Shown here in pieces: positions 56,886 to 57,217 of a stretch of DNA of 64,000 bases; position 1 is the stretch's first letter; each line of letters starts with the position of its first letter. The position numbers were made by a program, and so were the translations under genes. The notes beneath the pieces were generated by a model. It was not told the DNA's origin. It made no database searches and was given only the letters and a program-made list of their open reading frames with translations. This DNA comes from an uncultured Clostridium sp. (GTDB lineage: Bacteria; Bacillota; Clostridia; TANB77; CAG-508), in assembly GCA_948442365.1 (NCBI GenBank), contig CAOJRU010000006.1, positions 3,189 to 67,188 of the forward strand. Direction: 5' to 3'.

Positions 56886-56914
56886 TTGACATTACTAATT
56901 TTATATATTATAAT
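56886..56914 (+). promoter_or_regulatory. Exact sigma-A consensus promoter of the candidate antitoxin sRNA
   Basis: TTGACA (56886-56891), 17 nt, TATAAT (56909-56914). Confidence 0.6.
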
Positions 56915-56920
56915 AATTAT

Positions 56921-57011
56921 AGAAAATAAGGAACCACAAAATATGGTTACCAATGTTGAATAAAATTAATTAGTCATATCTCTATTGGTCAGCAGAGATA
57001 TGATTTTCTTT
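56921..57011 (+). ncRNA. Candidate small RNA of about 90 nt, antisense to the 3' end of the small hydrophobic ORF (type I antitoxin-like)
   Basis: Bounded by the consensus promoter and by a terminator (stem TCATATCTCT / AGAGATATGA, 56974-57003, followed by TTTTCTTT). It has a 5' hairpin at 56930-56951. It overlaps the stop codon and 3' UTR of the minus-strand ORF. Confidence 0.45.
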
Positions 57012-57116
57012 ATATGTAATTATAGTTATAACTATAATTAATATAAATGAGATGACAGTAAGAGCAACATTTGCAAATAATGATAACATTAATTGTAAAA
57101 GTATTCCTTCTAACAT
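56982..57116 (-). CDS. Small hydrophobic peptide (44 aa; not in the ORF track), type I toxin-like
   Basis: A strong RBS (GAGGTGGTG) then MLEGILLQLMLSLFANVALTVISFILIIVITIITYKENHISADQ*. It has one long TM segment and a polar tail. Confidence 0.45.
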   Translation of the reverse strand: MLEGILLQLMLSLFANVALTVISFILIIVITIITYKENHISADQ

Positions 57117-57188
57117 TCTACACCACCTCACTTTCTTTTTAGAATTGAGATGGTAACCATATTCTGCTTATCCTTATCTTCTTAAGGT

Positions 57189-57217
57189 ATTATACATTTT
57201 TGATATGGTATTGTCAA
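57189..57217 (-). promoter_or_regulatory. Exact sigma-A consensus promoter of the small hydrophobic ORF
   Basis: The minus strand reads TTGACA (57217-57212), 17 nt, TATAAT (57194-57189). This predicts a 5' UTR of about 65 nt. Confidence 0.6.

Follow-up and report, generated by a model that had tools for sequence, protein, structure and literature searches.

Organisation of the cassette

The 64,000-nucleotide (nt) stretch analysed here, called the window throughout, is part of contig CAOJRU010000006.1 of an uncultured Clostridium sp.; it comes from a spore-forming member of the Clostridia and has a G+C content of 30%. Between positions 56886 and 57217 it carries a small cassette in which two promoters face each other: the minus-strand promoter precedes an open reading frame (ORF) for a hydrophobic peptide of 44 amino acids (aa), and the plus-strand promoter would give a short RNA antisense to the end of that ORF. 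An earlier note, made from the letters of this DNA alone, had proposed a type I toxin-antitoxin (TA) module consisting of a hydrophobic-peptide mRNA, an antisense RNA at its 3' side and a hok-like fold-back of the mRNA, and conservation and covariation across related loci now lend support to that layout. The core elements are as follows.

57217..57189, minus strand: promoter of the peptide mRNA, an exact match to TTGACA-N17-TATAAT, with a predicted start near 57182
56886..56914, plus strand: promoter of the antisense small RNA (sRNA), an exact match to TTGACA-N17-TATAAT, with a predicted start near 56921
57122..57130, minus strand: Shine-Dalgarno (SD) region TGAGGTGGT, 5-6 nt ahead of the ATG
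56982..57116, minus strand: conserved ORF for the 44-aa peptide MLEGILLQLMLSLFANVALTVISFILIIVITIITYKENHISADQ (codons 57116..56985, TAG stop 56984..56982)
56920..57182, minus strand: predicted full-length peptide mRNA, ~263 nt, its ends placed from the promoter and the terminator
56921..57011, plus strand: predicted antisense sRNA, ~91 nt, placed from its promoter and terminator
56974..57011, plus strand: hairpin T1 (56974-56983 with 56994-57003, a perfect 10 bp) followed by TTTTCTTT, the predicted sRNA terminator

Conservation and distribution

Related loci were gathered by two scans of contigs, with one genome per species. The first scan, based on peptide patterns, yielded 25 loci, and the second, based on a pattern in the 5' untranslated region (UTR), yielded 30 stretches, of which 11 were new, giving ~36 loci in total (at least 36, with labels within L001-L061). 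Their hosts are metagenome-assembled genomes (MAGs) of uncultured gut or rumen Clostridia or Clostridium from mouse, rabbit, roe deer and Hadza people. In the DNA alignment, the conserved unit measures ~330 bp, beginning ~25 nt upstream of one -35 box and reaching as far as the other. The majority-base fraction, taken over 22 loci of different species, was 0.74-0.87 within the module and 0.41-0.42 in both flanks; conservation with such sharp edges rules out a chance arrangement.

Both promoters are part of the conserved unit. Among the intact loci, the peptide promoter retained TATAAT in 22/22 and TTGAC in 18/22, with a 17-nt spacer in all of them. The sRNA promoter (TATAAT and TTGAC, 17-nt spacer) was found in all 26 loci of the first set, including the six with a broken peptide gene (6/6), and the sRNA terminator was likewise conserved in 26/26, which points to an antisense RNA made from its own promoter, as is expected of type I TA systems. 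Exact TTGACA-N17-TATAAT sites occur seven times in the window, against 0.01 expected from shuffled sequences, and such perfect-consensus sites appear to mark real strong promoters here, since others precede a tRNA gene and the rplM operon. The two promoters, the 44-aa ORF and the terminator hairpin all lie where the earlier note had placed them, and across ~30 independent loci the promoters, the SD-ATG arrangement, the ORF, this hairpin and the complementarity of the 5' and 3' ends are kept.

The genes next to the cassette differ in nearly every locus and lie on either strand. Those identified by Pfam encode ClpX, ribosome hibernation factor (HPF), NUDIX and GNAT proteins, a response regulator, inositol monophosphatase, an IstB-like ATPase, an IS200 transposase and a GIY-YIG protein; a downstream cupin gene is confined to L017, L024 and the window. 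One MAG holds two intact copies on different contigs (L004/L057 and L032). The earlier note had suggested a search for paralogues: within the window, tblastn, blastn and an nhmmer profile of the module found no second copy, and the sole weak matches of the profile were to its own opposite end (E 0.02-0.08), as its ends are inverted. Tblastn found no copy in 50,697 phage and 72,556 plasmid records, nor did a scan of IMG/VR, with the limit that the low-complexity filter of BLAST could mask a hydrophobic query. No target-site duplications or transposase were associated with the unit. The module is chromosomal.

A conserved hydrophobic peptide with a predicted single helix

The peptide ORF is preceded by GAGGTGG at 57128..57122, of which GAGGTG is invariant across the loci but for one substitution each in L020 (GGGGTG) and in L056, a pseudogene (GAGGTA). 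In the first set, 20/26 copies (window included) have an ORF that is intact, 44-45 codons long and at an unchanged distance from the SD sequence, and the later scan added diverged intact copies, among them a subfamily with a 37-aa peptide. Insertions and deletions in intact copies were all in frame, with one codon missing in the window and two in protein clusters P0016 and P0017. Codon position 2 was about half as variable as the other two positions (summed entropy 10.4, against 22.0 for position 1 and 21.4 for position 3), which fits exchanges among I, L, V, F, A and T that keep a hydrophobic helix.

AlphaFold2, run with the family alignment, predicted a single helix over residues 2-43 with a predicted local distance difference test (pLDDT) score of 90.7. 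The grand average of hydropathy (GRAVY) of the peptide is 1.38, and its only charged residues are E3 and, within the last nine, K36, E37, H39 and D43. Nearly invariant across the family are E3, N16, I22 and an NHISA tail. By its length and predicted helix, the product would belong with the small hydrophobic membrane peptides (< about 60 aa) that serve as toxins in type I systems.

The earlier note had expected ORF-based annotation to miss the peptide, which proved wrong: the identical protein is called on 21 contigs. A collection of 5.8 billion proteins contains 24 homologous clusters, all unnamed and without a Pfam domain, and a representative set of 1.8 billion contains 61 clusters at 50% identity, all of 34-138 aa and of the same family. 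The peptide had no match in Pfam (E <= 10), NCBIfam, PADLOC, PHROGs or the PDB beyond chance matches to transmembrane segments. Scanning 35 members singly against Pfam (E <= 1) and their profile against the PDB likewise returned no family, and a full-text search of the literature did not find the peptide motifs.

Covarying structures in the peptide mRNA

The full 263-nt mRNA folded with a minimum free energy of -82.7 kcal/mol, far below that of shuffled sequences (z = -8.95). Besides T1, the mRNA contains the following elements.

57151..57182 (57182-57171, 57167-57151), minus strand: 5' arm of a long-distance pairing, containing GGTAACCATATT
57146..57154, minus strand: anti-SD ACCATCTCA in the 5' UTR, forming a local hairpin with the SD region TGAGGTGGT (57130-57122)
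57048..57056, minus strand: second anti-SD, within the ORF, reading GTCATCTCA in the window and ATCATCTC in most loci (codons 22-24 of the 45-codon alignment)
57017..57040, minus strand: conserved hairpin within the ORF (helix 6), a perfect 12+12 palindrome TAATTATAGTTA/TAACTATAATTA
56919..56951, minus strand: hairpin T2 (56951-56944 with 56936-56930) with TTATTTTCTAT after it, where the peptide mRNA probably terminates

Covariation supports four of the proposed structures: T1, the local anti-SD/SD hairpin, T2 and a 26-bp pairing of the 5' with the 3' end of the mRNA. The last of these is the most extensive. The first ~31 nt of the mRNA pair with its last ~32 nt, 57182-57171 with 56932-56921 and 57167-57151 with 56952-56936 (stretches of 12 and 17 bp), and RNAalifold recovered the same pairing. 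Over 29 distinct sequences, 97.2% of the alignment cells in the 26 pairs were paired, and 10 pairs had changed on both sides. None of 500 shuffles reached any of the five measures used, and pairings slid to other registers contained only 0-4 two-sided pairs. Compensatory change is illustrated by ATATGG/CCATAT against GTGTGG/CCACAC, by a 1-nt insertion or deletion that occurs in both arms together (GGTTACC/GGTAACC against GGTATC/GGTACC), and by L038, with arms AGCAAGG/CCTTGCT where AATAAGG/CCTTATT is found elsewhere. G-U pairs 15/254 and 18/251 were conserved in all sequences, and column 29 showed a one-sided U/C change; these features favour pairing at the RNA level over homogenisation of a DNA repeat.

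The 12-bp inverted repeat that the earlier note had seen around the ORF (AATATGGTTACC at 56940-56951, GGTAACCATATT at 57152-57163) is real, exact over 13 bp, and lies at the core of this pairing; the fold-back it was taken to imply is borne out on a larger scale than claimed, as 26 pairs with covariation. This fold-back requires an mRNA that reaches the second conserved hairpin and its U-run at 56951-56919, that is, T2. The T2 region is itself the 3' arm of the long-distance pairing (56952-56936, 56932-56921) and contains AATATGGTTACC on the plus strand. The hairpin is conserved in all loci, and its pair 247/253 occurs as C-G in 20 sequences, U-A in five and U-G in four. The U-G variants pair only on the peptide strand, and we accordingly read T2 as probably terminating the peptide mRNA. 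The predicted start of the sRNA falls exactly opposite the U-run of T2.

Two elements are predicted to sequester the SD sequence. In the 5' UTR, the anti-SD overlaps the long-distance 5' arm by 4 nt, and the anti-SD/SD pair 29/60 is fully compensatory (C-G in 15 sequences, U-A in 14); an mRNA cut after the first hairpin, T1, folds into this local hairpin. In the 5'-3'-closed conformer, the SD sequence pairs with the ORF-internal anti-SD (helix 3, 97.4% paired), whose ATC ATC codons are kept in 16/20 and 19/20 sequences despite the 30% G+C of the genome; this element is absent from the short-peptide subfamily. Within the ORF hairpin, pair 157/162 occurs as C-G in nine sequences and U-A in seven. 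Partition-function folding in four loci gave a probability of 0.01-0.12 that the SD sequence is unpaired in the free full-length mRNA, and of 0.000-0.006 when the 3' region is blocked or the mRNA ends at T1. The direction of this shift fits an sRNA that tightens translational repression, the figures themselves being small and model-dependent.

The predicted antisense RNA and the T1 hairpin

The earlier note had also predicted a convergent RNA of ~90 nt antisense to the stop codon and 3' UTR of the peptide mRNA, and conservation with covariation speaks for that architecture as well. The predicted sRNA is complementary to the mRNA over its whole length, covering codons 35-44 (the last 10) of the ORF, the stop codon and the 3' UTR. 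When folded, the 92-nt RNA 56921-57012 forms a 9-nt free 5' tail, a short 5' hairpin that is the complement of T2, a spacer and the T1 terminator. On the minus strand, T1 takes in the stop codon of the peptide gene and the codons just before it. Its pairs covary (188/212, C-G in 16 sequences and U-A in 10; 192/209, C-G in 26 and U-A in three). Read on the peptide strand, T1 is followed by a U-run whose quality varies, from good in some loci to poor in the window.

T1 is an RNA element in its own right, since the 37-codon subfamily, whose ORF ends in ...IISK, keeps the same hairpin as 3' UTR; the NHISA tail of the main family is then at least partly the translation of T1. This diverged subfamily comprises L042, L052 and L061 (the last of them frameshifted), with the peptide MIERALIQ...VVIISK, which ends before the T1 hairpin, and with the T1 sequence ACACATCTCTG...AGAGATGTGT retained downstream.

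Since the sRNA and the 5' end of the mRNA are both complementary to the 3' arm, the sRNA carries in its 5' part a near same-sense copy of the mRNA 5' end, and both RNAs begin (A)GAA(A/G)AUAAGGA. Between the sRNA and the first 110 nt of the mRNA, RNAduplex found no significant complementarity in 10 loci (z -0.9 to +1.1), and we rejected on this basis a par-like second contact of the sRNA at the mRNA initiation region. Rfam had nothing at gathering score in the region, and at E <= 10 only chance matches with E > 1 in 56200-58200.

The 5' part of the sRNA (56921-56963 on the plus strand and its equivalents) also contains an SD-like AAGGA(G) followed 7-10 nt on by AUG or GUG and a micro-ORF of 4-6 codons, whose peptide is not conserved (MVTNVE in the window, MWYH in others). 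This micro-ORF is probably just a consequence of the resemblance of the sRNA to the 5' end of the mRNA, though the AAGGA close to the start of each RNA could still have a stabilising role there.

Decay of the peptide gene

Across the ~36 loci, lesions affected the peptide gene only in eight cases, both genes in one and the sRNA gene only in none.

L009, L024: peptide gene only; everything upstream of about codon 17 replaced (5' part lost)
L014/L053: peptide gene only; ORF split after codon 7, on two contigs of one MAG (CANOPF)
L010: peptide gene only; promoter and 5' UTR deleted
L020, L021: peptide gene only; 1-nt frameshifts at the same site
L061: peptide gene only; frameshift in a T-run
L056: peptide gene only; ATG changed to ACG, plus an SD change
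L040:1385-1774, minus strand: both lost; what remains is the peptide promoter with its dyad and the 5' UTR as far as the anti-SD, the ORF and sRNA gene being replaced

Such a pattern, in which the peptide gene could be lost alone and the sRNA gene was never seen to be, is what one would expect of a peptide that does harm when the sRNA is missing.

Two of these loci call for comment. L020 and L021 belong to different clades and carry their frameshift at alignment columns ~144-147 (...TATATGTAAT / ...TGTATGTAAT), which may reflect a recurrent inactivating mutation, a mutational hot spot or an assembly artefact. In CANOPF, L053:3196-3392 holds the promoter, the 5' UTR and the first seven codons, and L014:2300-2434 holds the remainder of the ORF and the sRNA gene. 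The L014 part is preceded by a gene for a membrane protein (393 aa, no Pfam family) and by a second gene that reads as GNAT-like. An insertion sequence was considered as the cause of the split and rejected, the adjacent ORF having no transposase domain; the split is a matter of rearrangement or assembly break only.

A proposed mechanism

Taken together, the elements suggest the following course of events. The strong sigma-A promoter on the minus strand would yield the ~263-nt mRNA for the 44-aa single-helix membrane peptide, the presumed toxin, and the convergent strong promoter would yield the ~91-nt antisense RNA, the presumed antitoxin. During transcription, the 5' anti-SD hairpin would block ribosome binding on the nascent mRNA. 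After termination at T2, the 3' end would refold onto the 5' end to give a closed panhandle, a step that is favoured because the panhandle has 26 pairs and T2 only 7-9. The second anti-SD inside the ORF would hold the SD sequence while the molecule is closed, and both ends would be hidden from RNase J1 and 3' exonucleases, making the mRNA long-lived; we propose for this clamp a role like that of the 5'-end helix of pAD1 par, which is to give the toxin mRNA greater stability than the antitoxin.

The sRNA, with its free 5' tail and presumably short life, would pair both with the 3' arm and with the last part of the ORF, displacing the 5' end of the mRNA. This would create a ~90-bp duplex for RNase III, expose the 5' end and let the local anti-SD hairpin close fully, and the mRNA with bound sRNA would then be silenced and degraded. 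When sRNA synthesis stops, the stable closed mRNA would persist, some peptide would be made and the membrane would be damaged. The closest analogue of this mechanism is bsrG/SR4, where binding of SR4 at the 3' end of bsrG triggers decay by RNase III and tightens the SD helix.

A more specific version, which we put forward tentatively and regard as possible rather than probable, is that the antitoxin acts by strand displacement: the 5' part of the sRNA would mimic the 5' end of the mRNA, compete for the 3' arm and so open the clamp, exposing the 5' end to RNase J1 and allowing the local anti-SD hairpin to close. If true, this would be a new regulatory logic for type I systems, in which the antitoxin imitates how the toxin mRNA begins.

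Weighing the alternatives

We put at roughly 75% the probability that the cassette represents a previously unnamed family of chromosomal type I TA modules, with toxicity and both transcripts inferred from sequence. Several points weigh against this reading. On the peptide side, pN/pS (nonsynonymous over synonymous change) was 0.56 in frame and 0.59 in frame +1, a weak coding test, so the coding signal rests mainly on ORF integrity and on codon position 2; moreover, the C-terminal tail YKENHISADQ is not strongly charged, and its conservation may stem from the overlapping hairpin. On the RNA side, the covarying sequences fall in few clades, which makes independent compensatory events fewer than the cell counts, and no conformer with an open SD sequence, from which the peptide could be translated, was predicted in any state. 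The asymmetry of decay is modest, a simple target-size model giving only about p = 0.03 when peptide-only sequence is taken as 65% of the target; the hosts are uncultured MAGs, so that frameshifts and split loci could be assembly errors, and the peptide-pattern scan near the 3' end was biased against copies lacking the sRNA, a bias that the 5' UTR scan corrects in part. Finally, many known type I systems sit on mobile elements, and here none was found on the phages, plasmids and viral contigs searched, with most genomes holding a single copy.

The rival that survives best keeps the same two-RNA cassette and makes its product a harmless small membrane protein, such as a modulator of a membrane process, whose dosage is tuned by a cis-antisense RNA with no TA logic. 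We judge this unlikely, yet it deserves some weight: toxicity is presumed, the weakly charged tail and the mostly single copies with no link to mobile elements sit easily with it, and the near-invariance of E3, N16, I22 and NHISA could mean a specific partner and not generic membrane damage. However, no conserved neighbour gene offers itself as such a partner, and none is needed for NHISA, whose codons form the 5' arm of a terminator hairpin that is kept where it is untranslated. Three layers of translational silencing together with a full antisense RNA would also be unusual for a benign gene with a consensus promoter, and decay strikes the peptide gene and never the sRNA gene alone.

Far less probable is a non-coding mobile element or structured DNA or RNA element bounded by inverted-repeat ends (a promoter and ~30 nt each), in which the ORF would be incidental. 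The ends do form an imperfect inverted duplication, both RNAs starting (A)GAA(A/G)ATAAGGA...TGGTWMCCA, and the hidden Markov model of the module matches its own other end, as noted above; insertion sites also differ among species, and RNA hairpins explain part of the conservation of the peptide. Nevertheless, the SD sequence, the ATG and the ORF length are conserved, with most ORFs of the first set and further diverged copies intact and carrying in-frame insertions and deletions only, codon position 2 is constrained, and the substitutions preserve a continuous hydrophobic helix. Homogenisation of a repeat at the DNA level accounts less well than RNA pairing for the G-U pairs and the one-sided changes, and the unit has neither target-site duplications nor a transposase.

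A role for the small ORF and its minus-strand promoter as leader or attenuator in the control of the cupin gene (56846-56490), which lies on the same strand, starts 135 bp past the ORF and likewise follows in L017 and L024, has practically no standing and was rejected, as it is contradicted by unrelated downstream genes, often on the opposite strand, in the other ~20 loci, and by two U-run hairpins and a convergent consensus promoter that separate the ORF from the cupin gene.

Relation to known type I systems

As a type I TA family, the cassette would combine the 3'-overlap layout of Gram-positive systems with an end-to-end clamp like that of hok and AapA, two designs hitherto reported from separate lineages. 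T1TAdb sets out how the known families are organised and by which descriptors they are found, namely SD and anti-SD sequences, stem-loops at the 5' and 3' ends, and 5'-3' interactions (PMC8594479). Sequestration of the SD and pairing between the 5' and 3' ends, both predicted here, are features of type I toxin mRNAs, and Gram-positive families have antisense RNAs that overlap the 3' side (PMC8594479).

With TxpA/RatA, BsrG/SR4, BsrE/SR5, BsrH, YonT/SR6 and SprG/SprF, the cassette shares a convergent antisense RNA on the 3' side, over the end of the ORF and the 3' UTR (PMC8594479). It also shares with the Bacillus subtilis systems a small single-span hydrophobic peptide with a polar tail (PMC6563280) and an SD sequence that is partly or fully sequestered in the mRNA. 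It differs from them in that the mRNA covers the sRNA entirely, that the 3' arm of the mRNA also pairs with its own extreme 5' end, and that the module lies outside a prophage. The peptide shows no similarity to TxpA, BsrG or YonT, with no Pfam or NCBIfam match at E <= 10 and at most 5 bits when the family profile was scored against sequences of these toxins, a comparison that serves as a lead only.

The par system of pAD1 (Fst, RNA I-RNA II) has in common with the cassette convergent promoters, a shared terminator hairpin, an SD stem-loop and a 5'-end helix; in par, this helix hides the extreme 5' end and gives the toxin RNA greater stability (PMC7472228). In contrast, the direct repeats of par let RNA II pair with the initiation region, whereas the repeats of the cassette are inverted. 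RNA II does not overlap the ORF, as the sRNA does here (PMC8594479), and the peptide has no PXXXG motif, no proline in its helix and no match to Fst_toxin in Pfam (35 members, E <= 1).

The mRNAs of the hok/AapA type are activated by 3' trimming. Like the cassette, hok/Sok and AapA/IsoA have a 5'-3' closure of the full-length mRNA and anti-SD sequences that silence it both while it is transcribed and afterwards (PMC8594479, citing Masachis and Darfeuille, 2018). These systems (AapA/IsoA from Helicobacter pylori) are Gram-negative, with the antisense RNA at the 5' part of the mRNA or ORF, whereas that of the cassette is directed at the 3' arm of the clamp itself. In sequence the cassette resembles neither, with no HOK_GEF match in Pfam and, unlike in hok/Sok, no mok-like leader ORF overlapping upstream.

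To our knowledge, few type I systems are known in Clostridia beyond Clostridioides difficile. Its systems (CD0956.2/RCd10, CD2517.1/RCd8 and others) share with the cassette the class Clostridia, membrane peptides of 34-59 aa, antisense antitoxins and sigma-A promoters (PMC6563280). They adjoin CRISPR arrays or cyclic di-GMP riboswitches or lie in prophages, and often have sigma-B promoters (PMC6563280), none of which was seen for the cassette. No similarity to them was found, and profile searches returned only the cassette's own family.

Represented by at least 36 loci and, at 50% identity, by 61 protein clusters, the cassette is a candidate type I family for uncultured gut Clostridia, one that is unsurprising in kind and adds a family, with every RNA element mapped to the base, to poorly sampled gut bacteria. 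It may offer a compact model for the interplay of mRNA end-pairing, decay by RNase J1 and RNase III, and SD sequestration. If the peptide is toxic, the 330-bp unit could serve for counter-selection or plasmid stabilisation in low-GC anaerobes.

Upstream dyad and genomic setting

A further conserved element lies upstream of the peptide promoter.

57217..57248 (motif 57227-57238), no strand assigned: dyad AAAC-N4-GTT(T/C), 9 nt upstream of the peptide -35 box, a candidate operator

In the window, this dyad is the centre of a perfect 15+2+15 palindrome, and in 24/31 loci it stands 8-10 nt (once 6, once 11) upstream of the peptide -35 box. Were the strand-displacement scheme true, an AAAC-N4-GTTY operator would add a transcriptional input to it. 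The dyad resembles the Gram-positive SOS box GAAC-N4-GTTC; a LexA (Cheo) box was nevertheless rejected as its identity, since the left half-site is AAAC in all loci and never GAAC.

On one side, the cassette is flanked by a cluster of SipL, an unnamed 142-aa gene and a YunB-like gene, and on the other by the cupin gene, rpsI and rplM. The YunB-like gene is followed by a terminator at 57774-57746 on the minus strand, and between this terminator and the cassette lie ~500 bp (57249-57745) without a credible ORF or Rfam match. At gathering score, the only Rfam matches in the window are a glmS ribozyme at 32101-32258 (plus strand, 84 bits) and a tRNA at 31069-31142 (plus strand). The five other exact consensus promoters lie at 55176-55204 (minus strand), 55229-55257 (plus strand), 31020-31048, 61506-61534 and 63157-63185; they include a divergent pair between an SH3/NlpC-P60 gene and rplM-rpsI, and one promoter 21 nt ahead of the tRNA gene.

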